A stretch of DNA of 64,000 bases from Gaiellaceae bacterium (GCA_036503495.1 DASXWV010000101.1:2023-66022), one strand, 5' to 3'. Numbered from the stretch's first letter, positions 1,663-58,655 are shown. Numbers and translations: made by a program. Notes: generated by a model from the letters alone, not told the origin.

Positions 1663-2181
1663 ATGTCTCACTCGCTCAGAGTCTTTCTCGTGCTGTGCGC
1701 GCTCACGCTCTCGACGGCGTTCGCGCTGCTCCGCCCGCTCGGGGGGCGCGCCGCCGACACCCCGGCCCCGGTGTCGACGACCCAGCCGGCGCCCGTGCGG
1801 AAGCTGGCCGCGAACCTCGCCTTCGGCCGCCGCGTCGTCGGCTACGCCCGGCGGTTCCTCGGCGTCCGCTACGTCTACGGCGGCAGCTCGCCGCGGAGCG
1901 GCTTCGACTGCTCCGGGTTCGTCCGCTACGTCTACGCCCACTTCGGCGTCGCGCTGCCGCACTCGAGCTACGCGCAGTTCAACGACGGCCGGCGGGTCGC
2001 ACGCGGCTCGCTGCGCCCCGGCGACCTCCTCTTCTTCGACGGCCTCGGCCACGTCGGCATGTACGTCGGCAACGGCCGCTTCATCCACGCGCCGCACACC
2101 GGGACGCGGGTGCGGATCGAGAGGCTCGCCGGCTGGTACAGCGCACGCCTCGACGGCGCGCGCCGGATCAAGAACGCCTAG
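1663..2181 (+). CDS. Secreted NlpC/P60 (C40) peptidoglycan endopeptidase
   Basis: 172-aa ORF with an N-terminal signal peptide (VFLVLCALTLSTAFA). Catalytic Cys motif 'GFDCSGFVRYVY' and His motif 'GHVGMYVG...FIHAP'. Confidence 0.9.
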   Translation: MSHSLRVFLVLCALTLSTAFALLRPLGGRAADTPAPVSTTQPAPVRKLAANLAFGRRVVGYARRFLGVRYVYGGSSPRSGFDCSGFVRYVYAHFGVALPHSSYAQFNDGRRVARGSLRPGDLLFFDGLGHVGMYVGNGRFIHAPHTGTRVRIERLAGWYSARLDGARRIKNA

Positions 2182-2707
2182 CCCGGTACGCGCGAGTCTT
2201 CGTGCGGTTGCCGCAGACGGCCATCGAGCACCACACGGCCGACCGGTTCCGCGAGCGGTCGTAGAAGAGCCAGCGGCAGGTGTCGGCGCGGCAGGCCTTC
2301 AGCCGCGACCAGGTCCCGTCGGCCCGCGCGGTGTAGACGATGCCGACGAGCTCGGCGAGGGCACCCTGCACATCGCGCTGCAAGGGCGCCAGCTCGGCGG
2401 CTGAATCGTCGACGCGCACGACGAGCTCGGCCTCGAGCTCGACGTCGGTCGCGATCCCGTTGTTCGCGAGTGCGAGCGCCCTGATCCGGCCGCGGACGTC
2501 GTGCGCCGCCGCGAGCTCGCGGGCGCCGACCTGCGCGCCGGGATCGAGCAGGCCGAGGCGGACGAGGAGCGTGCGCAGCGCCTCGGGCGAGTGCAGGACC
2601 TCGCGGCCGTGCTCCTCGTCGATCGTGTTGGCGAACCGCTGGACGAGCTCGAGCCGTCCGGGCGCCGGCGGGTGCGGCTCGTAGTCGATCGACGCGACGG
2701 GCTCCAC
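2168..2707 (-). CDS. CGNR zinc-finger domain protein (ABATE + zf-CGNR)
   Basis: 179-aa ORF with the C-terminal motif 'C....C.WLFYD.SRN.S..WCSM.VCGNRTKTRAYR'. Confidence 0.85.
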   Translation of the reverse strand: MEPVASIDYEPHPPAPGRLELVQRFANTIDEEHGREVLHSPEALRTLLVRLGLLDPGAQVGARELAAAHDVRGRIRALALANNGIATDVELEAELVVRVDDSAAELAPLQRDVQGALAELVGIVYTARADGTWSRLKACRADTCRWLFYDRSRNRSAVWCSMAVCGNRTKTRAYRARRS

Positions 2708-2737
2708 AGCCCGACACTACCAAGCGGCTGAAGCCGG

Positions 2738-3157
2738 TTACTTGAGCTTGTCGGCCATCGCCGTCAGGAGCTTCCACGCGATCGCGGAGTTGCTCTCGAC
2801 GAGCGGCCGGAAGTCCCAGGGCGTCATCCCCCAGCAGACCATGTCCGTCTTGGCGGTGATCGTCGCCGTCCGGTCGGAGCCGGTCAGCAGCGCGATCTCG
2901 CCGAAGTAGTCGCCGGCGCCGATCGTGCCCCGCTCCTCGCCGGCGACGGAGACGTCGGCCTCGCCCTCCTCGACGATGAAGAAGCCGGCGCCGCCGGCGC
3001 CCTCCTGCGTCACCGTGTCGCCCGACGAGAAGCGGCGCTCGCGCATCTGCGCGGCGATCTCCTGCAGCTCGCGGTCGTCGAGGCCCGAGAAGAGCGGCAC
3101 CTGCTTCAGCACATCGGCGGACGCCCTGGCCACGGCGGAGTTATACACCGTTGCCAC
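2738..3157 (-). CDS. Cyclic-nucleotide-binding (cNMP) domain protein
   Basis: This is the C-terminal 139 codons of the 597-aa track ORF. The GTG start at 3157 was worked out by hand (VATVYNS...). cNMP motifs present: 'FFIVEEGE', 'GDYFGEIALL', 'RTATITA'. The rest of the track ORF is Arg/Asp-rich shadow. Confidence 0.8.
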   Translation of the reverse strand: MATVYNSAVARASADVLKQVPLFSGLDDRELQEIAAQMRERRFSSGDTVTQEGAGGAGFFIVEEGEADVSVAGEERGTIGAGDYFGEIALLTGSDRTATITAKTDMVCWGMTPWDFRPLVESNSAIAWKLLTAMADKLK

Positions 3158-3163
3158 GCGGCT

Positions 3164-3907
3164 GTGAGAAATCGGCAGGATACGCCGGTGCGCCTCACCG
3201 TCATCGGTTGCTCGCCCGCGTGGCCGAACGCGAGCGGAGCGCAATCCGGCTACCTCGTCGAGAGCGACGACGGCCGGTTGCTGCTCGACTGCGGCCCCGG
3301 TGTGCTCGCCCGGCTGCGCGCGAGCGACGGCGGCTGGCCGAGGGTCGATGCGGTCGCGATCACGCACTTTCACCTCGACCACTGGGGCGATCTCGTGCCC
3401 TGGGTCTTCGGCGCCGCGTTCGGCCCCGGTCGCAATGCGCCGAAGCCGGAGCTGTGGCTGCCGCCCGGCGGCAGCGATCGCCTCCGCGACTACGGCTCGC
3501 GCATGAGCTTCGCGGGCCAGATCGACGACGCGTTCGACGTCCGCGAGTACGGCGACGCGCCGTTCCGCGCGGCGGGGTTCGAGCTGACGCCCCACCGCCT
3601 CGAGCACTACTCCGAGCTGACGTACGGGCTGCGCGTCCGCAACCACAGCGGGACGCTCGCCTACAGCGGCGACACCGGCCCGAGCCCGGCGCTCGTCGAG
3701 CTGGCCCGCGACGCCGACCTCTTCCTCTGCGAGGCGACGCTGCGAGAGCCCGAACCGGCCGAGCGGGGTCATCTGACCGAGGACGAGGCGGTCGCCGCCC
3801 ATCGCCGCGCCGGCGCAAAACGGCTCGTCGTGATCCACCGCCCCGACGAGCTGCCGCTCTCGCCGGACGTCGAGCGCGCCGCCGACGGCGACGTGCTCGA
3901 GTTCTGA
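3164..3907 (+). CDS. MBL-fold metallo-hydrolase
   Basis: 247-aa ORF with the 'THFHLDHWGD' HxHxDH motif. The start may instead be the GTG at 3188 (VRLTVIG). Confidence 0.85.
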   Translation: MRNRQDTPVRLTVIGCSPAWPNASGAQSGYLVESDDGRLLLDCGPGVLARLRASDGGWPRVDAVAITHFHLDHWGDLVPWVFGAAFGPGRNAPKPELWLPPGGSDRLRDYGSRMSFAGQIDDAFDVREYGDAPFRAAGFELTPHRLEHYSELTYGLRVRNHSGTLAYSGDTGPSPALVELARDADLFLCEATLREPEPAERGHLTEDEAVAAHRRAGAKRLVVIHRPDELPLSPDVERAADGDVLEF

Positions 3908-4696
3908 GTGCCCGACGGCGACGCGTTCCTGAAGCTCGACGAGCGCGGCACGATCGTCGACGCGAACGCCGCCGCCGCGGCGATCCTCGGCCGCGACCGC
4001 GACGAGCTGATCGGCGAGCCGCTCGCGGCGGTCGCGGGTGCCTCCGTCGTCATGGCCGAGTTCCTCCGCAACGCGGCCCACCAGCTGCGCACGCCGCTCG
4101 CCGGGATCACCGCCGCGGTCGAGACGCTGCAGGCGGGCGCGAAGAACCGCCCGGAGGACCGCGACCTCTTCCTGTCCCATATCCAGACGCACGCCGACCG
4201 GCTGACGCGGCTCGCGCGGGGGCTGCTCCTGCTGGCGCGTGCGCGGGCCGGCGAGTCCGTCCCCGTCGATGCCGTCGAGCTGCGGCCGCTGCTCGACCGG
4301 CTCGTCGCGGACGCCGAACCTCTCACCGGTGTCGACCTCCGCGTCGACTGCGCACCGGGCCTCGCCGCGCTTGCCACGCCCGACGTGTTGCAGGAGGCGC
4401 TCGCGGCGCTCGTCGCGAACGCCGTGGCGCACACGACGGAGGGCGCGATCCGGATCGGCGCGATCCGGGACGACGCACAGGTCGTCCTGACGGTCGCCGA
4501 CTCGGGGCCGGGCATCCCAGCCGAGTTCCACGCCCGCGTGTTCGAGCCGTTCTTCCGGTTGACGCCGACGGGCGAGGGCTACGGCCTCGGCCTCTCGATC
4601 GCCGCCGACTCCGTCAAGGCGCTCGGCGGCACGATCGACGTGTCGTCGCCTCCCGGCGGGGGCACGACCTTCACCGTGAGGCTTCCGTCGGCGTGA
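3908..4696 (+). CDS. Soluble sensor histidine kinase (short PAS-like N-terminus, then HisKA and HATPase_c)
   Basis: 262-aa ORF with H-box 'AHQLRTPLAG' and ATPase boxes 'NAVAHT', 'DSGPGIP', 'GYGLGLSI'. No TM segments. It begins directly after the MBL stop codon. Confidence 0.85.
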   Translation: MPDGDAFLKLDERGTIVDANAAAAAILGRDRDELIGEPLAAVAGASVVMAEFLRNAAHQLRTPLAGITAAVETLQAGAKNRPEDRDLFLSHIQTHADRLTRLARGLLLLARARAGESVPVDAVELRPLLDRLVADAEPLTGVDLRVDCAPGLAALATPDVLQEALAALVANAVAHTTEGAIRIGAIRDDAQVVLTVADSGPGIPAEFHARVFEPFFRLTPTGEGYGLGLSIAADSVKALGGTIDVSSPPGGGTTFTVRLPSA

Positions 4697-5379
4697 GCGG
4701 CAGGATCCTCGTCGTCGAGGACGAGCAGGCGATCAGCGACGCCGTGGCGTACGCGCTGCGCGAGGCGGGATTCGACGTCGACGCGGTCGACGACGGCGAC
4801 GAGGCGCTCGCCCGCGCGCGTTCGCGCGACTACGACCTGATGGTCCTCGACCTGCTGCTTCCCGGGACGCCGGGGGTCGAGGTCTGCACCGCGCTGCGCG
4901 GCGAGGACAGCGACCTGCCGATCGTCATGCTCACTGCCCGCGACGGCGAGGCGGACCGCGTCGCCGGGCTCGACATCGGCGCCGACGACTACGTGACGAA
5001 GCCGTTCTCGGTCGCCGAGCTCGTCAGCCGGGTGCGCAGCCTGCTCCGCCGGCGCGAGCTCAACCGCGCGGACGCGCCGACGCTGCGGACGGTCGGTGGA
5101 CTGCAGCTCCATGTCGGGCGCCACGCGGCGACGGTCGACGGGACGCCGGTCATGTTCACCCGCTCGGAGTTCCGGCTGCTCGAGCTGCTCTCGTCGCAGC
5201 CCGGCCGGCCGTTCACGCGCGACGAGCTCGTGCGCGAGATCTGGGAGGAGGACGCCGGCGGCGACCGCCGGGCGATCGACGTCCACGTCTCGAATCTCCG
5301 GCGTAAGCTCGAAGCCGACCCGCGCCGGCCGAAGCGGCTGTTGACCGTGCGCGGCGTCGGCTACAAGCTCGTTCCCTAG
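4693..5379 (+). CDS. OmpR-family response regulator
   Basis: GTG start overlaps the kinase stop (GTGA). Receiver motifs 'ILVVEDE', 'LMVLDLLLPG', 'MLTAR', 'DDYVTKPF', plus the winged-helix motif 'TVRGVGYKL'. The upstream 500 codons of the 742-aa track ORF are shadow sequence. Confidence 0.9.
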   Translation: MSGRILVVEDEQAISDAVAYALREAGFDVDAVDDGDEALARARSRDYDLMVLDLLLPGTPGVEVCTALRGEDSDLPIVMLTARDGEADRVAGLDIGADDYVTKPFSVAELVSRVRSLLRRRELNRADAPTLRTVGGLQLHVGRHAATVDGTPVMFTRSEFRLLELLSSQPGRPFTRDELVREIWEEDAGGDRRAIDVHVSNLRRKLEADPRRPKRLLTVRGVGYKLVP

Positions 5380-14626: not shown

Positions 14627-14700
14627 GGGGGCGTAGTTCAGCTGGTTAGAACGCCGGCCTGTCACGCCGGAGGTCGCGGGTTCGAGTCCCGTCGCTCCCG
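14627..14700 (+). tRNA. tRNA-Asp (anticodon GUC)
   Basis: Cloverleaf folded by hand. Acceptor GGGGGCG/CGCTCCC has one G-U pair. D arm is GTTC..GAAC. Anticodon stem is CCGGC/GCCGG with loop CTGTCAC. T arm is GCGGG-TTCGAGT-CCCGT. Discriminator is G and no CCA is encoded. A TACAAT -10-like hexamer lies at 14610..14615. Confidence 0.95.
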
Positions 14701-36130: not shown

Positions 36131-36604
36131 TTATCCCTGCGTGTGCTTGAGCTGCGCCTCCTGCACCTGTGCCTCGGCGAGCGTCAGCGACCCCGCGCAG
36201 ACGCGCGCATTCAGGTCGTTCTCGATCCGGTCGACCGCGCTCGCGCGCGGATAGGGCTCCGGCCACAGGTTGCGAGGGTCGGTCGGGTCGCCGCCCAGCT
36301 CGAGCGAGATCAGATGATCCTCCTGGTAGGCGGCCGGTGGTCCGTGCTCGTCGTACATGCGCATCTGCTTGCGCTTGAGCGCGTTCGTGTAGTCGGTCGG
36401 CGGGCGGATCGTCCGCGTCCAGCCGCGCCGGCAGATCGTCGAGCCGATCGTCGCCTGCATCACTGCCGCGTTCAACACGCCGGGCGTGCGGACTGCATCC
36501 GCCACGAGCGGCGCGTGCACACTTCGGCGCGCGTAGAGCACGAGCGCAAGCACGAACAGGCCGAGGGCGGCGATCACGAGCACGCGGCGCAGATCCGTTG
36601 TCAT
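36131..36604 (-). CDS. Membrane-anchored HNH (His-Me finger) nuclease-like protein
   Basis: 157-aa protein from the ATG at 36604. N-terminal TM anchor (VLVIAALGLFVLALVLY). 'EDHLISLELGGDP.DP.NLWPEP' resembles the DH..PL.LGG...N HNH core. Confidence 0.6.
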   Translation of the reverse strand: MTTDLRRVLVIAALGLFVLALVLYARRSVHAPLVADAVRTPGVLNAAVMQATIGSTICRRGWTRTIRPPTDYTNALKRKQMRMYDEHGPPAAYQEDHLISLELGGDPTDPRNLWPEPYPRASAVDRIENDLNARVCAGSLTLAEAQVQEAQLKHTQG

Positions 36605-36615
36605 TGCAGACAACG

Positions 36616-38031
36616 CTACGCAGGCGACGGCTCGGCCGCAAGTCGCTCTTGCGGCCGTGTCCGGAAGAGCGCTGCGCCGGCGAGCCCCCACACGCAATAG
36701 GCGACCCACGGGTCGCCGATCACGTCGGTCTGGACGGCGAGCGCGAGCACCGCCGCGAACGCCGCGCACATTCGCAGCGCGCGCGAGCGTGCGAGCCCGA
36801 CGAGCACCGCCAGCCCCCACGCGATCCAGAGCAGGGACCCGAGCACGCCAAGCTCGACGCCGAGCTCCGTGTAGTTCGACTCGCCGGCCTGGAGCGGCGT
36901 CTTCGTCCGCGACGCGACCTGCCCGACGTTGCCGAGACCGTAGCCCTGCGGGTGATCGGCCATCGTCCGCACACCGTCCTTCAGCGACTGCCAGTGCTCG
37001 TGCAGCGACGGCTCGTCCTCGCTGACCGCCGAGAACGAGCCTTGCGGCCCCTTCTCGGCCTGCCGGTGCTGGTAGCGGAGGTCGGCGCGCGTGAACTGCC
37101 CGGTCGGCGCGATGTGTGGGAACGCATGCGCCCACGCGACCGCGACGACGATCACAAGTGCGGCGCCGCCGAGCGCGAACGCGGACCGGCGGAGCAGCGC
37201 AAGCACGACGAGCCCGCCCGCGAGCGCGACGAGCGACGAGCGCGAGAACGTCCACAGCAATCCCGCGAAGACGACGACGGCGAGCGCGAGCGCTGCTCGC
37301 CCGCGCCGCACGCCGACGAGAAGCGCCACGACGAACAGGTAGCCGCTCGCCAGCGGCGAGAGGAACGTCGTCACGAGCCGCCGCAGGAACGGCCGGTCGC
37401 CGCCGACGTTGTAGATGAAGTTCTCCGGCAGGTTGCCGGTGCCGTGGTAGTCGTAGCCGAGGTGCTTCCGGAAGTAGTCGACGACCGCCGACTGGCGCCA
37501 CCACGAGATCGGGATCGCGTAGACGTCGATCAACCCCCACGCTGCGACCGCGGCGGCGACACCGAAGAGCGTCCACACGAGCGCACGCCATTCGCGCCGC
37601 GTGACGACGAGCGAGCGCCCCAGGAAGTAGGCCCCGACGGGCACGACGTCGTGGCGCAGCCCGAGCGCGACCGCGCGGTGGCCGGCTTGGCCCCCGAGTG
37701 CCGACTGCGGGATCAGCGCGTAGACGACGCAGAGCAGCGCGAACGCGACCGCGAGCCAGTCGGCGACGCGCCAGACGAACGGCGGCGTCCGCGTCCGCAC
37801 AGCGGTGCAGACCACCCGGGCGAGTGCGACCGCGAGCAGGATCTCCTTCCACGCCGCGATCGCGGTCAGCGTCGAGCCGCGAATCCCGGCGCCGTACAGC
37901 GCGGCGAGCACCGCGTTGTGCAGCGCCAGTCCGACGAGGAAGAGAAAGAGGGCGACCACCGGCCGCCGCCAGACGGCAACGGCGGCGACGGCCAAGAGCA
38001 GGGCGTACAGGGCCAGCTCGAGGGCCGTCAT
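36616..38031 (-). CDS. O-antigen ligase / polymerase (Wzy_C) family membrane protein
   Basis: 471-aa protein from the ATG at 38031 (MTALELALYALLL). Ten or more TM helices, 'TFSRSSLVAL' and a large loop typical of the O-antigen ligase family. Confidence 0.8.
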   Translation of the reverse strand: MTALELALYALLLAVAAVAVWRRPVVALFLFLVGLALHNAVLAALYGAGIRGSTLTAIAAWKEILLAVALARVVCTAVRTRTPPFVWRVADWLAVAFALLCVVYALIPQSALGGQAGHRAVALGLRHDVVPVGAYFLGRSLVVTRREWRALVWTLFGVAAAVAAWGLIDVYAIPISWWRQSAVVDYFRKHLGYDYHGTGNLPENFIYNVGGDRPFLRRLVTTFLSPLASGYLFVVALLVGVRRGRAALALAVVVFAGLLWTFSRSSLVALAGGLVVLALLRRSAFALGGAALVIVVAVAWAHAFPHIAPTGQFTRADLRYQHRQAEKGPQGSFSAVSEDEPSLHEHWQSLKDGVRTMADHPQGYGLGNVGQVASRTKTPLQAGESNYTELGVELGVLGSLLWIAWGLAVLVGLARSRALRMCAAFAAVLALAVQTDVIGDPWVAYCVWGLAGAALFRTRPQERLAAEPSPA

Positions 38032-38048
38032 CGACGGCGAGGGTACAG

Positions 38049-38076
38049 CGGGCGGGGGCACACGCCCCCGCCCGCC
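38049..38076 (-). terminator. 12-bp perfect hairpin (gcgggcgggggc-acac-gcccccgcccgc) after the 32-aa sORF
   Basis: Lies 14 nt past the sORF stop codon on the minus strand, upstream of the O-antigen ligase start. Confidence 0.45.
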
Positions 38077-38089
38077 GGATCCGATCGGC

Positions 38090-38188
38090 CTAGATCGGGC
38101 CCCACGGCTCGCTGCCGAGAAGGACCGACGCGAGCGCCAGGACGGCGACGAGCAGGACGAGCCGGATGTAGAAGGAGTGACGGGACAC
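38090..38188 (-). CDS. 32-aa hydrophobic pro-peptide-like sORF (MSRHSFYIRLVLLVAVLALASVLLGSEPWGPI)
   Basis: Not in the ORF track because it is under 60 aa; translated by hand. The GTG start is preceded by 'AAAGGTGGGGG'. It has a basic N-terminus, a hydrophobic core and a polar tail 'SEPWGPI', and is followed by a hairpin. It is divergent from the HTH-TPR regulator gene. Confidence 0.45.
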   Translation of the reverse strand: MSRHSFYIRLVLLVAVLALASVLLGSEPWGPI

Positions 38189-38263
38189 GTCCCCCACCTT
38201 TCTTTTGCGAATCCCTCGTTCGAGGGACTCTGTGTCGCGCCCGACCGAAACAGACGCTGACGA

Positions 38264-38276
38264 CACTTGTCAAGTG
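38264..38276. promoter_or_regulatory. Palindrome CACTTG-T-CAAGTG, candidate operator
   Basis: Perfect 6+1+6 inverted repeat, 5 nt upstream of a TTGACG -35-like hexamer, between the sORF and the HTH-TPR gene. It shares the GTCAAGTG core with repeats at 58753..58773. Confidence 0.45.
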
Positions 38277-38280
38277 GGGA

Positions 38281-38309
38281 TTGACGTCGTCCGCAGAAAC
38301 CCCCATTAT
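38281..38309 (+). promoter_or_regulatory. Sigma70-like promoter (TTGACG, 17 nt spacer, CATTAT) giving a near-leaderless HTH-TPR mRNA
   Basis: The hexamers and spacing were read directly. The ATG at 38319 lies about 10 nt after the -10 hexamer and no Shine-Dalgarno is present. Confidence 0.4.
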
Positions 38310-38318
38310 TGGGCACAC

Positions 38319-39644
38319 ATGAGTCCGGACGGAGCGCCCGCCGCAGGCGAGACGATCGGGCAGCGGCTCAAGCGCCTGCGGCTGGAGAGGGGTCTTTCTC
38401 AGCGCGAGCTCGCTGCACCCGGCGTCTCATATGCCTACATCTCCCGCATCGAGGCGGGAACTCGACAGCCGTCGGTGAAAGCGCTGCGCCGGCTCGCCGC
38501 CAAGCTCGGCGTCACCGCCGACTACCTGGAGACCGGCTCCGATCTCGACCCCGCGAACGAACGCGAGCTGAGGCGGAGCGACCTCGAGCTCGCCGAACGG
38601 CTCGGCGAGCCGGACGGCGCCGAGGCCGGCTTGACCGAGCTCGCCCAGGAGGCGCACGCCGCCGGCGATCGCCGGACACTGCTCCGCGCGAACGTCGCAC
38701 TCGCGGCGCTCGCCCAGGAGCGCGGCGAGTTCGAGCGTGCGGTGACGCTGCTCGAACGCGCCCTCGAGGGCGAGCCGTTCGACCCGTCGGGCCTGATCGA
38801 CGTCTACGCGCAGCTTGCGCGCGCCTACTCGGTCTCGGGACGTCCGCACGCCGCCGTCGATCTCTTCCAACGCTGCTTCGACGACGTCTCGGACGGCGAG
38901 GATCCCGCTCTCGAAGCTCGTTACGCGACGGCGCTCAGCTATGCGCTCAGCGATATCGGCGAGATCACACGCGCCGAGCAGGTGCTCCAGCGCGCGCTCC
39001 AGCGCGGGAGCGACATCGAAGATCCGTACATGCGCGTGCGCCTCTACTGGTCGATGGCGCGGCTCGCACATCACGAGGGTCGAAGCACCGCCGCCCTCGA
39101 CAACGTCCGCAAGGCGATTGCTCTTCTCCGCCTGACAGAGGACACCGTTCATCTCGCACGCGCGAACCTGCTCGCGGCCGCGATCTCGCTTTCGCGTGAA
39201 GACACCGACGCCGGCGCGACGTATCTCGACCAGGCGGAGCAGCTCCTCGGCCCATCGCCGTCGACCGAGGATCTCTTCGAGCTCCGCATCCGCCGGTCGA
39301 AGGTCGCGCTGCTGCGGGGCGAGCGCGACGACGCGATCCGTCTCGCGCGCGAGGCCGTCGACATCGCAGGCAGCTACAACCCGGTCGAAGAAGGACTGGC
39401 GTTCTCTGTCCTCGGCGATGCGCTCGCGCTCGCCGAGGAGACGCAGGGCGCCGACGAGGCCTATCGCCGCTCGGTCGGCCTCCTCGAGGGCGAGGGCCGG
39501 TGGCGCGACGCGTCGAACACCTGCCGCTCGTGGGCTCGTATGCTGCGGCAGGTGGGTCGCGAGCAGCAGGCGATGGATGTGCTCGACCGCGCAGCCGAGC
39601 TGGCGATGCGCGCGACGCCTGCGGACGCCCGCGTCGAGCGTTGA
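38319..39644 (+). CDS. XRE-type HTH + TPR-repeat transcriptional regulator (441 aa)
   Basis: N-terminal 'GQRLKRLRLERGLSQRELA....YAYISRIEAG.RQPS...LRRLAAKLGV', followed by about 350 aa of repeated helix-pair (TPR-like) units. Paralogous to 57312..58655. Confidence 0.85.
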   Translation: MSPDGAPAAGETIGQRLKRLRLERGLSQRELAAPGVSYAYISRIEAGTRQPSVKALRRLAAKLGVTADYLETGSDLDPANERELRRSDLELAERLGEPDGAEAGLTELAQEAHAAGDRRTLLRANVALAALAQERGEFERAVTLLERALEGEPFDPSGLIDVYAQLARAYSVSGRPHAAVDLFQRCFDDVSDGEDPALEARYATALSYALSDIGEITRAEQVLQRALQRGSDIEDPYMRVRLYWSMARLAHHEGRSTAALDNVRKAIALLRLTEDTVHLARANLLAAAISLSREDTDAGATYLDQAEQLLGPSPSTEDLFELRIRRSKVALLRGERDDAIRLAREAVDIAGSYNPVEEGLAFSVLGDALALAEETQGADEAYRRSVGLLEGEGRWRDASNTCRSWARMLRQVGREQQAMDVLDRAAELAMRATPADARVER

Positions 39645-57055: not shown

Positions 57056-57103
57056 GTCGAGCAGATGTCCGCGTTGGCCGCCCAGGAAACACCGGACGGC
57101 CCC

Positions 57104-57162
57104 CTAACCGCCGCGCGACTCCCGCGCGACGGTTAGTGGGACAGCGCCTAGCGCTGCCCCAC
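57104..57162 (-). terminator. Two adjacent hairpins 3' of the 36-aa sORF
   Basis: 57136..57162 has the stem 'gtgggacagcgc'/'gcgctgccccac' with one mismatch, abutting the stop codon. 57104..57136 has 'ctaaccg..cgcgcg'/'cgcgcg..cggttag'. Confidence 0.4.
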
Positions 57163-57272
57163 TAGATGATCCAACCGCCGTCGTTCGGCCCGAACGGCTT
57201 GAAGCAGAAGCCGAGATAGAAGGCCAGAAGTGCGGCGAACACGAGCAGGAAGATGAGCCGCGCTTTTGTCAT
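57162..57272 (-). CDS. 36-aa hydrophobic pro-peptide-like sORF (MTKARLIFLLVFAALLAFYLGFCFKPFGPNDGGWII)
   Basis: Not in the ORF track; translated by hand. The ATG is preceded by a strong Shine-Dalgarno 'GAGAGGAGGTG' at 8-nt spacing. It has a basic N-terminus, a hydrophobic core and a polar tail. It lies 37 nt downstream of, and on the same strand as, the HTH-TPR regulator gene. Confidence 0.5.
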   Translation of the reverse strand: MTKARLIFLLVFAALLAFYLGFCFKPFGPNDGGWII

Positions 57273-57311
57273 GTGTCGTCACCTCCTCTCAGCGTTTGAT
57301 CAATACCGGGA

Positions 57312-58655
57312 TTAGAAGCGGACGTCCTGGAGAGCCTCGGCCGCCGTGCGGTAGAGGTGTGCTGCAAGCCTGTCGTCGCCGCGCTTCGCGGCGAGGTCGC
57401 CGCGCGCGACCCACACGGCCGCGCGATGGCTGGCGGAGCCGAGCTGCTCGAACGTCGCCTCGGCGGCGACGAACGACTGCTCCGCTTCGTCGAGCATGCC
57501 CCGCTCGAGGTGCGCGCGCCCGAGCACCAGCTGGGCGTTGCCGACCTCGTCGAGGTAGTCCTCGTGGCCTTCGAGCAGCCGAAGCGCATGCTCGGCCTGC
57601 TCGGCGGCCTTCGCGGGATCCCCCGTGCGCAGGTTGATCGTCGCGAGCGACGAGACGGCCTGCGCGGCGTCCTGATCGAGCCCGTTGTCGAGCGCGATCG
57701 AGAACGCCTCCTTCAGCTGGGCGACTGCGTCCTCGGTCTTGCCGAGGAGGAAGTTGAGCGTGCCGAGGTTGTTCGTCAGCCGGCCGACGTGCACCCGGTC
57801 GGCGAGCTCCTCGTACGCGGCGCGGGCGCGCTCGGCGTACGTCCGCGCGAGCACCCAGTGCCCTTCGCGGTCGGCGACGAGCGACGCCTGGAAGAACGCG
57901 GCGCCGATCGTGCGGGGATCGTCGGCGTCTTCGGCGAGCTGCAGCGCGCGCTCGATGTCCTCGCGCGCGGCCTCGTAGTCGCGCATCCGGCGCCAGCAGC
58001 GCGAGCGCCAGGAGAGGATGCTCGAGCGGAGCGAGTCGGACGGCATCCCCGACCGCTCCGACAGCGCCAGGGCCTCATTGAGCAGGCCGAGTGCCGTCTG
58101 GATGCTGTTCAGCTGATAGCGGCAGACGCCGAGCGCGTAGAAGACTTCCGCGCGCTCGAGATCGGAGAACGAGCCGCCTTCGACGATGCCGCGGGCGTCG
58201 TTCAGGAGGTCGAGACCCTCACGGAGCCGGCCGAGGCGCATGCGCGTCTTGCCGGCGCCGACGAGCGCGCGCACGGCGAGCTCGGGGACGCCCATCGAGC
58301 GCGCCTGCGGGACGAGCGACTCGTACTCGACATCCGCCTCTTCGTTCCGCGCGGCCTCGAACAGCGCCTCCGCGCGTGCGAGCGCCCCTTCGAGGCGGCC
58401 CCGTTCGTCGGTCGCGACACCGTTGGCGAGGAAGCCCGCGTCGACGCCGAGGCGCGCCGCGAGCCACTCGATCGTCTCGCGCGTCGGGCGCGTCTTGCCG
58501 CGCTCGATCTGCGACACATATTCCTTGGAGAACCGCTCGCCCGCGAGCTCGCTCTGCGTCAGCCCGGCCGCGACACGAAGCTGGCGGAGGCGCTCGCCGA
58601 GGCGAAGACCCGTCTGGGCGGCGCTGCGGGTGCGAGTTGCGGCGTTCTCGTTCAT
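57312..58655 (-). CDS. XRE-type HTH + TPR-repeat transcriptional regulator (447 aa)
   Basis: ATG at 58655 (MNENAATRTRS). 'GERLRQLRVAAGLTQSELA.....EYVSQIERGKTRP....IEWLAARLGV' followed by TPR-like repeats. Paralogous to 38319..39644. Confidence 0.85.
   Translation of the reverse strand: MNENAATRTRSAAQTGLRLGERLRQLRVAAGLTQSELAGERFSKEYVSQIERGKTRPTRETIEWLAARLGVDAGFLANGVATDERGRLEGALARAEALFEAARNEEADVEYESLVPQARSMGVPELAVRALVGAGKTRMRLGRLREGLDLLNDARGIVEGGSFSDLERAEVFYALGVCRYQLNSIQTALGLLNEALALSERSGMPSDSLRSSILSWRSRCWRRMRDYEAAREDIERALQLAEDADDPRTIGAAFFQASLVADREGHWVLARTYAERARAAYEELADRVHVGRLTNNLGTLNFLLGKTEDAVAQLKEAFSIALDNGLDQDAAQAVSSLATINLRTGDPAKAAEQAEHALRLLEGHEDYLDEVGNAQLVLGRAHLERGMLDEAEQSFVAAEATFEQLGSASHRAAVWVARGDLAAKRGDDRLAAHLYRTAAEALQDVRF

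Follow-up and report, generated by a model that had tools for sequence, protein, structure and literature searches.

The stretch of DNA analysed here (64,000 nucleotides (nt); GCA_036503495.1 DASXWV010000101.1:2023-66022; hereafter the window) contains two gene pairs, locus 1 and locus 2, each consisting of a gene for a regulator, in which a helix-turn-helix (HTH) domain is followed by tetratricopeptide repeats (TPRs), and an adjacent small open reading frame (sORF) for a hydrophobic peptide. The genes are real, conserved and mutually coupled, and the regulator is composed of an HTH domain and a TPR superhelix. The reading favoured here, with a probability of roughly 45%, is that each locus is a two-gene receptor–peptide module that works like an RRNPP cassette. 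Of the peptide–receptor module that an initial annotation of the window had proposed for a member of the Actinomycetota, the conserved gene pairing was confirmed, whereas a homology of the TPR domain to RRNPP receptors was not. The window has a G + C content of 70.7%, and the 441-amino-acid (aa) regulator of locus 1 (regulator 1) matches without any difference an NCBI entry derived from a metagenome-assembled genome (MAG) of the Gaiellaceae, which places the host in the Thermoleophilia within the Actinomycetota. The features of locus 1 on which the argument rests are:

38319..39644, plus strand: receptor candidate 1 (regulator 1), 441 aa, with an XRE-type HTH at residues ~13-72, a linker helix and ~8 TPRs
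38090..38188, minus strand: sORF1, candidate pro-peptide or small membrane peptide, 32 aa, GTG start, MSRHSFYIRLVLLVAVLALASVLLGSEPWGPI; C-terminal forms GSEPWGPI, LGSEPWGPI and SVLLGSEPWGPI
38191..38201, minus strand: Shine-Dalgarno region of sORF1, AAAGGTGGGGG, read from the sequence

Conservation and coding capacity of sORF1

The start codons of sORF1 and regulator 1 lie 130 nt apart in divergent orientation. The sORF was found exactly where the initial annotation had placed it (38188..38090, GTG start, AAAGGTGGGGG Shine-Dalgarno site, 130 nt from the regulator), and the peptide sequence given there is correct to the residue. The peptide is composed of a basic N-terminus, an 18-residue hydrophobic core and the tail LGSEPWGPI.

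One genome per species was scanned for relatives of regulator 1, which yielded 80 loci with 47–78% identity (family 1); the counts given for this family refer to the 75 of these loci with at least 300 nt upstream of the regulator gene. A divergent sORF1 homologue was present beside the orthologous regulator in 63 of the 75, at a distance of 101–313 nt (median 134) from the regulator start, and tblastn matches to these homologues reached E-values down to 1e-11. Absence of the sORF from orthologous loci had been named at the outset as the result that would speak against the proposal, and what was found is clear conservation.

Family-1 sORFs usually have 32 codons and end with PWGP followed by no or one further residue, the rarer endings being P[VI]GP, DWGP and PWVP. 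Residues P28, W29 and P31 are invariant and R3, L17, G25 and G30 almost invariant, in contrast to the hypervariable last position. In the N-terminal part, positions R3, Y7 and R/K9 are also conserved (MSRxxxYVR). A perfect GGAGG at most 16 nt before the start codon precedes 63 of 75 family-1 copies. The G + C contents of 0.69, 0.46 and 0.915 at codon positions 1, 2 and 3, respectively, are typical of coding DNA where a genome is rich in G + C, and the ratio of nonsynonymous to synonymous changes (pN/pS) is 0.71 in frame versus 0.91–1.64 in the five other frames. Conservation, Shine-Dalgarno sites and the codon-position signal together rule out that sORF1 is a spurious open reading frame of a 71% GC genome. 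As judged from these comparisons, sORF1 is a real gene that is coupled to the regulator.

In public records, the orthologues of sORF1 are annotated solely as "hypothetical protein", and no record was found for the GTG-started copy of the window itself. When the 32-aa peptide was used as query against 1.84 billion representatives, 13 family members were recovered, either ~32 aa in length or N-terminally over-extended gene calls; one further match was rejected as a chance match to a repeat protein. Neither sORF1 nor sORF2, the small gene of locus 2, belongs to a named family in Pfam or NCBIfam. The family-1 loci in which the regulator stands without an sORF are L042, L045 (regulator frameshifted), L046, L055, L059, L065, L068, L069, L073, L077, L078 and L080. 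No hydrophobic sORF preceded by a Shine-Dalgarno site was detected at these 12 loci within the sequence covered, and they either encode orphan receptors or have their peptide gene elsewhere.

Tandem copies and the constrained half of the peptide

Two to three tandem sORF copies occur in 13 family-1 loci. Codon differences between the copies of one genome comprised 22 synonymous and 51 nonsynonymous cases in the N-terminal half, versus 37 and 19 in the C-terminal half (Fisher p = 7.5e-5). When L005, in which each copy has its own regulator, and L010 were set aside, the counts were 18/42 for the N-terminal and 33/6 for the C-terminal half (p = 1.2e-7). The constrained part of the sORF1 peptide is its C-terminal half, and these counts argue that selection acts on this half, at minimum on the last nine residues LG[ST]EPWGPx, wherever one regulator is served by several copies.

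This distribution bears on the possibility that the sORF product functions as an intact single-pass membrane partner, of which the short N-terminus or the whole peptide tethers and releases the TPR regulator. Transcription would then be coupled to the state of the envelope or membrane rather than to cell density, which we regard as unlikely. The hydrophobic segment has transmembrane length (18 residues) and is followed by only 7–8 residues, the N-terminal residues R3, Y7 and R/K9 are conserved too, and a strict coupling of regulator and sORF fits a membrane partner as well as it fits signalling. However, the tandem copies hold constant the half that is predicted to be extracytoplasmic, while the half facing the cytoplasm varies freely, and an extracytoplasmic tail would have to be released and imported before a TPR domain in the cytoplasm could reach it.

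Genes for small hydrophobic toxins and stress peptides are commonly amplified in tandem, and the tandem copies would also agree with a second alternative, in which the regulator is the dedicated transcription factor of an effector membrane peptide and its TPR domain senses something else. Such an effector might act in envelope stress, be a small toxic or depolarising peptide, or belong to a membrane enzyme as its subunit or modulator. The 12 loci that keep the regulator without an sORF can be counted in favour of such an effector, which we nevertheless consider quite improbable. An argument to the contrary comes from the Gaiellaceae MAG SPRUCE_201 (L005, positions 1685..5320), which contains two complete cassettes of regulator and divergent sORF in tandem, so that regulator and sORF were copied together. 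Its two regulators are 64–69% identical to regulator 1, their peptide tails differ (GLEPWGPG versus GNEPWGPY), and the double cassette looks like a duplication followed by divergence of a receptor–peptide pair. Several genes for pro-peptides are also reported for some Rap systems (PMC9765709), a precedent for tandem sORFs.

A second receptor–peptide family at locus 2

A paralogue of the module had been noted initially at 57162..58655. It exists, but its sORF lies downstream of the regulator gene on the same strand and is not divergent:

57312..58655, minus strand: receptor candidate 2 (regulator 2), 447 aa, HTH_31/HTH_3 and TPRs (Pfam)
57162..57272, minus strand: sORF2, 36 aa, MTKARLIFLLVFAALLAFYLGFCFKPFGPNDGGWII, starting 39 nt after the regulator-2 stop codon
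57286..57282, minus strand: Shine-Dalgarno site GGAGG of sORF2
57104..57160, minus strand: pair of strong neighbouring hairpins immediately past the sORF2 stop codon, predicted fold

Regulators 1 and 2 are 27% identical (E 6e-13). Metagenomes were scanned with regulator 2, which resulted in 515 related stretches; the scan gave 80 loci (family 2), of which the 70 with at least 150 nt downstream of the regulator were used for the counts. A hydrophobic sORF follows the regulator stop codon on the same strand in all 70 loci. Under a stricter rule for start codon and Shine-Dalgarno site it was recovered in 67 of them, with a perfect GGAGG in 58 of the 67, and its start mostly lies ~25 nt (range 16–34) past the point where the regulator match ends. 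The family-2 consensus consists of [MV]-T-K-A-R-L-I-Y-L-L, a hydrophobic stretch and G[ML][SN]DGG[YFG][WFL], the window variant ending in ...KPFGPNDGGWII. The exact sORF2 sequence is publicly recorded solely as "hypothetical protein". Since the gene after the sORF varies, being UbiB/ABC1-like in only 27 of 59 loci, sORF2 is tied to regulator 2. The region 57090..57175 (minus strand), which covers the hairpins after sORF2, has a predicted folding energy of -52.2 kcal/mol (z-score -5.4).

The P[W/F]GP motif that the tails of the two peptides had been thought to share is a coincidence, because family 2 conserves G[ML][SN]DGG instead. Locus 2 represents an independent receptor–peptide family with its own tail, G[ML][SN]DGG plus an aromatic residue. 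That each receptor family has a private tail family argues against a mere membrane partner, in favour of which the N-terminal TKARL of family 2 (MTKARL), which is conserved too, may be cited. The same observation is difficult to reconcile with an effector peptide, since two receptor families that are only 27% identical keep their private peptide families over large distances and in two different layouts.

Comparison with RRNPP systems and other TPR regulators

The 441-aa protein at 38319..39644 is indeed an XRE-type HTH and TPR protein. Pfam places HTH_3 at residues 17-70 (53.5 bits), followed by TPR_12, TPR_2, TPR_14, TPR_MalT (66.7 bits) and other TPR families. An AlphaFold2 model based on an alignment of 35 sequences had a mean predicted local distance difference test score (pLDDT) of 88.9 and comprises the HTH (residues 13-72), a linker helix and 17 helices over residues 101-432, corresponding to ~8 TPRs and a capping helix. 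Among 8,000 candidates scored, 3029 relatives of regulator 1 were found at E ≤ 1e-5; the best 120 are 63–100% identical to it and nearly all have 440–442 aa, and those with a named source stem from Gaiellaceae. An exact look-up of regulator 1 on public contigs gave no record.

The two loci were compared with the operational signature used by RRNPP_detector, which consists of a small peptide, its export, a receptor of 250–500 aa, TPRs and adjacency (PMC10075063). Four of the five elements were found, and export was judged by shape. The receptors have 441 and 447 aa and contain TPRs according to the Pfam matches (HTH_3/HTH_31 plus TPR families) and the AlphaFold2 model with ~8 repeats. A peptide gene within the range of 10–100 aa adjoins each of them (a divergent one of 32 aa at 130 nt and a co-directional one of 36 aa at 39 nt), and its translation is indicated by the perfect GGAGG sites (63/75 family-1 and 58/67 family-2 copies) and the G + C signature at third codon positions. 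The peptide, in which a hydrophobic core of 18 residues follows a basic N-terminus, resembles SHP and PrgQ in shape and is too short for Sec processing. A check for an HTH-TPR receptor beside a small open reading frame, as the initial annotation had suggested, therefore gave a positive result for receptor, TPRs, peptide and adjacency, export being plausible from the SHP-like shape. Both canonical RRNPP layouts are present, the divergent one at locus 1 and the co-directional one at locus 2.

Among the known systems, Rgg/SHP and PrgX/PrgQ are similar to locus 1 in having a cytoplasmic regulator of XRE-HTH and TPR type, a single intergenic control region and a divergent, very short peptide gene (17–35 aa), whose product combines a hydrophobic body with a basic N-terminus and lacks the length needed for a classical Sec signal. 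The active part of these peptides is formed by the C-terminal 7–9 residues, comparable to the constrained C-terminal half observed here. They differ in that Rgg and PrgX have 5 degenerate TPRs and ~285–320 aa, as opposed to ~8 canonical TPRs and 441 aa in regulator 1, in that the tail of the sORF1 peptide is polar and aromatic (SEPWGPI) and not hydrophobic as in Rgg/SHP, and in their hosts, which belong to the Lactobacillales (Bacillota) and not to the Actinomycetota. PlcR/PapR, NprR/NprX and AimR/AimP, which occur in Bacillales and their phages, share with locus 2 a peptide gene directly downstream of the receptor on the same strand, and with both loci the occurrence of peptide families that combine a conserved core with variable positions; NprR and AimR (~380–420 aa) also fall into the same length class of HTH plus 8–9 TPRs. 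In contrast, their pro-peptides have 40–60 aa and a cleavable Sec signal peptide, whereas the peptides described here have 27–40 aa.

In Foldseek searches, the model of regulator 1 matched best to the peptide-binding TPR domains of LGN/Pins (E 2e-8). The 8-TPR superhelix of LGN/Pins/GPSM2 accommodates extended peptides in its inner groove (target-normalised TM-score 0.60–0.73), but the protein is a eukaryotic scaffold without HTH, and a match of the generic TPR fold at 15–16% identity is not evidence of shared function. The PlcR-PapR-DNA complex 3u3w_A was found at rank 23 (E 9e-7; TM-score 0.35 normalised by query and 0.52 by target), with generic TPR proteins scoring higher, and the PlcR-PapR complex 2qfc_A at rank 33. 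Apart from these two entries, the top 50 contain no bacterial transcription factor; NprR, Rap, AimR and Rgg are absent from them.

MalT/STAND proteins and the SARP-type regulators AfsR and NsdA resemble regulator 1 by a TPR_MalT match above the cut-off, by sub-threshold NCBIfam matches and by their high-GC Gram-positive host. The NCBIfam scores lie far below the respective cut-offs (MalT 22.5 versus 537, AfsR 37.9 versus 1430, NsdA 47.1 versus 75), and Pfam detected HTH_3-type and TPR families in regulator 1 but no NB-ARC/STAND ATPase, BTAD or LuxR domain that would indicate membership in the MalT/STAND or SARP families. Regulator 1 also has its XRE-type HTH at the N-terminus and is half to a third of the size of MalT, AfsR and NsdA. 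To our knowledge, no member of these families is paired with a small peptide gene. As far as the model indicates, the TPR domain forms a superhelix of canonical, non-degenerate repeats, similar in kind to those that bind peptides, and cannot be assigned to a specific family; the predicted fold of the regulator is compatible with peptide binding.

Homologues of the regulator with 27–30% identity are also encoded on plasmids of the Streptomycetaceae, and three of the four inspected lack a comparable sORF. The Streptomyces goshikiensis plasmid NZ_CP108058.1 (L163, 4053..4554) encodes a full-length HTH-TPR homologue (27% identical) with two small downstream hypothetical proteins on the same strand, one of 71 aa ending with ...DIPLCC and one of 68 aa with a Sec-type signal peptide (..PAALA|DTPTP..).

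Control region and RNA elements of locus 1

The intergenic region and the region beyond the sORF1 stop codon contain the following elements:

38281..38309, plus strand: regulator-1 promoter TTGACG-17-CATTAT, with the ATG 10 nt later
38258..38276, no strand assigned: box TGACGACACTTGTCAAGTG, with the conserved core CTTGTCAAG at 38266..38274 (minus-strand reading TTGACA)
38209..38230, minus strand: stem-loop in the 5' leader of sORF1, GAGUCCCUCGAACGAGGGAUUC, predicted fold
38048..38075, minus strand: GC-rich hairpin, terminator- or attenuator-like, without U tract, 14 nt after the sORF1 stop codon

TTGACG-17-CATTAT is the only sigma-70-like site in 37900..38400 (0.0 expected in shuffled sequences), and ATTGACG and a -10-like element of this promoter are conserved in orthologues. 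Because the promoter ends 10 nt before the ATG, the mRNA of regulator 1 is probably leaderless or nearly so. No canonical -10 element for an sORF1 promoter could be placed convincingly in the intergenic region.

The CACTTGTCAAGTG palindrome described in the initial annotation is present at 38264..38276; it is not conserved as a palindrome, so that a conserved palindromic operator is not supported, conservation being restricted to a GTTGTCAAG-type core. This core occurs in nearly all family-1 intergenic regions 10–15 nt upstream of the regulator -35 element. It is embedded in TGACGAC-AC-TTGTCA in the clade of the window and in a perfect TGACAAC-T-GTTGTCA in L002, and in other clades a partner half-site is located ~26 nt away. 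From its position, the core may be the -35 element of the sORF, an operator of the regulator, or both.

The leader stem-loop of sORF1 is kept with different sequences in orthologues, such as GTCACCCGATCGGGTGAC in L006 and GAGCCCCTGCAGGCGGGGCTC in L011. The perfect 12-bp hairpin that had been noted after the sORF was found at 38048..38075 with 12 perfect G-C pairs; the predicted fold has 14 pairs. It is present in most loci and shows compensatory changes at 5 of 13 pairs in the close clade. In the distant clade the hairpin is followed by CTTTTG and resembles an intrinsic terminator, and in one subgroup, where Wzy_C (a gene described below) starts ~30 nt after the sORF, it is missing. In L017, L020, L031 and L040 there is no hairpin after the sORF, Wzy_C starts ~30 nt past its stop codon, and the leader stem-loop TCCCTCG..CGAGGGA is replaced by two copies of the direct repeat GGTATGAC(A/G)C. 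With its leader stem-loop and a 3' hairpin that is terminator-like in the distant clade, sORF1 looks like a short, self-contained transcription unit.

A promoter of its own, a stabilising 5' stem-loop and a terminator-like hairpin would likewise be expected of the gene for an effector peptide, as would a generic, non-degenerate TPR domain with a TPR_MalT match in its regulator. On the other hand, neither an antisense RNA nor an antitoxin-like partner is apparent, and no known RNA element of Rfam matches around sORF1.

The motif TTGACAAC or a one-base variant recurs on the minus strand after the sORF hairpin, ~55–70 nt past the stop codon, in L050, L057, L058, L061 and L074, and it also precedes the sORF. 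The gene that follows this recurring motif is a VOC/glyoxalase gene in the annotated loci L048, L052 and L071. The motif may serve the regulator as a further binding site or else be a generic -35 element. The sole Rfam match at the gathering threshold in the 64 kb is a single tRNA gene (14627..14700, plus strand).

Proposed mode of action and significance

For the RRNPP-like module we infer membrane insertion, cleavage, export and re-import of the peptide, its binding by the TPR domain and a regulatory output. The sORF1 peptide would be made from its own short transcript with a Shine-Dalgarno site, 5' stem-loop and 3' hairpin, and would insert into the membrane with the N-terminus inside and the C-terminus outside by means of its basic N-terminus and 18-residue hydrophobic core. 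The exposed C-terminal part (~LGSEPWGPI) might then be cut off and released, as with SHP and PrgQ, the peptide being too short for classical Sec processing. Once in the cytoplasm, the released peptide would occupy the groove on the concave side of the 8-TPR superhelix of the regulator and would alter the occupancy of the shared divergent promoter around the GTTGTCAAG box by the HTH. The output would be feedback on sORF1 and the regulator and, in the lineage of the window, possibly also read-through into the genes for Wzy_C and a 157-aa protein that follow sORF1. Locus 2 would be a second, independent, co-directional pair with its own tail.

Several observations weigh against a module of this kind. 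On the side of the receptor, Pfam RNPP_C, Rgg_C and AimR gave no match at E ≤ 0.1, and TPR_MalT scored above its gathering cut-off (66.7 versus 45 bits). A full-length profile of regulator 1 matched PlcR (E 6.5e-11, query residues 10-203), but this match is driven by the HTH and vanishes without it; the TM-score to PlcR is only 0.35/0.52. A profile of the TPR domain alone found no RRNPP chain among the 60 matches listed in the PDB at E ≤ 10, the matches being LGN/Pins, KLC (kinesin-light-chain-like), LapB, MamA and MalT. The test for homology of the TPR domain to those of RRNPP receptors was therefore negative, both because the PlcR match is HTH-driven and because the TPR domain itself matches TPR_MalT above the cut-off and no RRNPP receptor. 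On the side of the peptide, a membrane-resident function is equally natural, given the hydrophobic stretch of transmembrane length with only 7–8 residues after it, and 12 of the 75 family-1 loci have a regulator without any sORF. PWGP is invariant even among regulators that have diverged to 47–50% identity, and classical pherotype systems diversify more than this tail does. Peptides with a conserved core are known, an example being the DPG motif in an AimR clade (PMC12700828). Furthermore, the locus-1 module is a vertically inherited, syntenic chromosomal locus and not an accessory element, and no relative was found on viral contigs. A processing protease, an exporter or an oligopeptide permease was recognised neither near the two loci nor among the annotated open reading frames of the window.

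In the literature searched, RRNPP or RRNPPA systems have been described only for the Bacillota, their plasmids and their phages, and the signals described for actinobacteria are small molecules (PMC10075063, PMC12700828, PMC9765709). No report of an RRNPP-type system in the Actinomycetota was found in this literature, by which the RRNPP-like pairing of receptor and peptide is new for this phylum. The two conserved gene pairs make peptide signalling in the Actinomycetota a concrete possibility. Two receptor–peptide gene families with the RRNPP signature are conserved across an order of abundant, mostly uncultured soil actinobacteria. We offer as a tentative and rather doubtful suggestion that the Gaiellales and at least some Solirubrobacterales possess a genuine RRNPP-type communication, in which secreted and re-imported oligopeptides of the types xxxPWGPx and G[ML][SN]DGG-aromatic are read by cytoplasmic HTH-TPR receptors. 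If so, at least two anciently diverged receptor–peptide families would be inherited vertically in the chromosome, and this would be the first RRNPP-type system outside the Bacillota. Such a mode of signalling would then either predate the split of Bacillota and Actinomycetota or have arisen by convergence.

The ancestral architecture of the RRNPPA family (5 or 9 TPRs) is an open question that calls for an outgroup (PMC12700828). If the peptides are ligands, the taxonomic range of this mode of communication would be wider and the regulators would be a candidate for this outgroup (PMC12700828). Short synthetic peptides such as LGSEPWGPI make the ligand idea directly testable on purified regulator and in soil enrichments. 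If the peptides are not ligands, the strictly conserved pairing of a 30-aa membrane peptide with an HTH-TPR regulator would still constitute a regulatory pair not described before.

Genomic neighbourhood of locus 1

The sORF1 gene is followed on the same strand by two genes:

36616..38031, minus strand: Wzy_C (O-antigen ligase family) membrane protein, 3' of sORF1, Pfam PF04932, 45.5 bits
36131..36604, minus strand: 157-aa membrane-anchored protein with an N-terminal transmembrane segment, conserved beside Wzy_C and formerly labelled as HNH nuclease

Of the O-antigen ligase and HNH nuclease neighbours named initially, the former is supported by Pfam, whereas the latter label is unsupported: the protein at 36131..36604 has no match in Pfam or NCBIfam, a DHxxSLELGG...N motif being visible by eye only. 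In the closer orthologues (56–78% identity), the gene order is regulator, divergent sORF(s), Wzy_C and the 157-aa protein. Wzy_C is syntenic in L001-L045 and L051, with the 157-aa protein in strict synteny to it, and it is absent from most loci whose regulator is 47–53% identical.

The loci with 47–53% identity are positional orthologues of locus 1, as seen in L048, L052, L058, L061 and L071 among those inspected. On one side, korA is common to L048, L058 and L061, and a VOC/glyoxalase gene is found there in L048, L052 and L071, L052 being without korA. On the other side, all five have an HhH-GPD-like gene or proC, and several a pgl-like gene. All five lack Wzy_C and the 157-aa protein and retain the divergent sORF, as do 13 further loci of this identity range that keep a divergent sORF of the type M[ST]ARIQALL...N[AG]S[ST]PWGP. 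Since the sORF is kept where Wzy_C is absent, and since L005 has copied regulator and sORF together, the sORF goes with the regulator rather than with the Wzy_C operon. The operon of the two neighbours is not supported as an obligatory output, as it is absent from the deeper-branching orthologous loci. That the module is a core syntenic chromosomal locus and that envelope genes (Wzy_C) adjoin it in one large clade would both suit an intact membrane partner of the regulator.

A further alternative is that the sORF is a cis-acting leader, in which a ribosome stalled at the C-terminal PWGP remodels the hairpin and thereby controls the downstream gene. The tail recalls known arrest motifs (SecM ...RAGP, TnaC ...P-stop): the invariant PWGP lies 0–1 codon before the stop, with a hypervariable last residue, and the conserved last ~13 residues match the length of peptide in the ribosomal exit tunnel. 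A strong hairpin ~14 nt after the stop codon and a Wzy_C start without Shine-Dalgarno site would also be in keeping with such control. Nevertheless, it is very improbable. Downstream of the sORF, one clade has Wzy_C and the other, where the hairpin is terminator-like with a T tract, has a VOC/glyoxalase gene, and family 2 has no proline motif, is located after the regulator and is followed by varying genes. A 32-aa peptide would still be inside the ribosome at termination, which makes force sensing of the SecM/MifM type impossible, and both the hydrophobic core and the tight link to the HTH-TPR gene would be left unexplained.

Two simpler assignments were also considered. A role of the sORFs as leaders of Wzy_C or UbiB is unlikely because the downstream genes vary, and a precursor of a RiPP, a peptide made by ribosomes and modified after translation, was rejected, since none of the contexts seen had an adjacent modifying enzyme. 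Between the hairpin and the start codon of Wzy_C, for which no Shine-Dalgarno site is recognisable, the block CCGCCCGC-TGTACCCTCG is nearly invariant (38030..38050 in the window and the equivalent positions in L001-L030).

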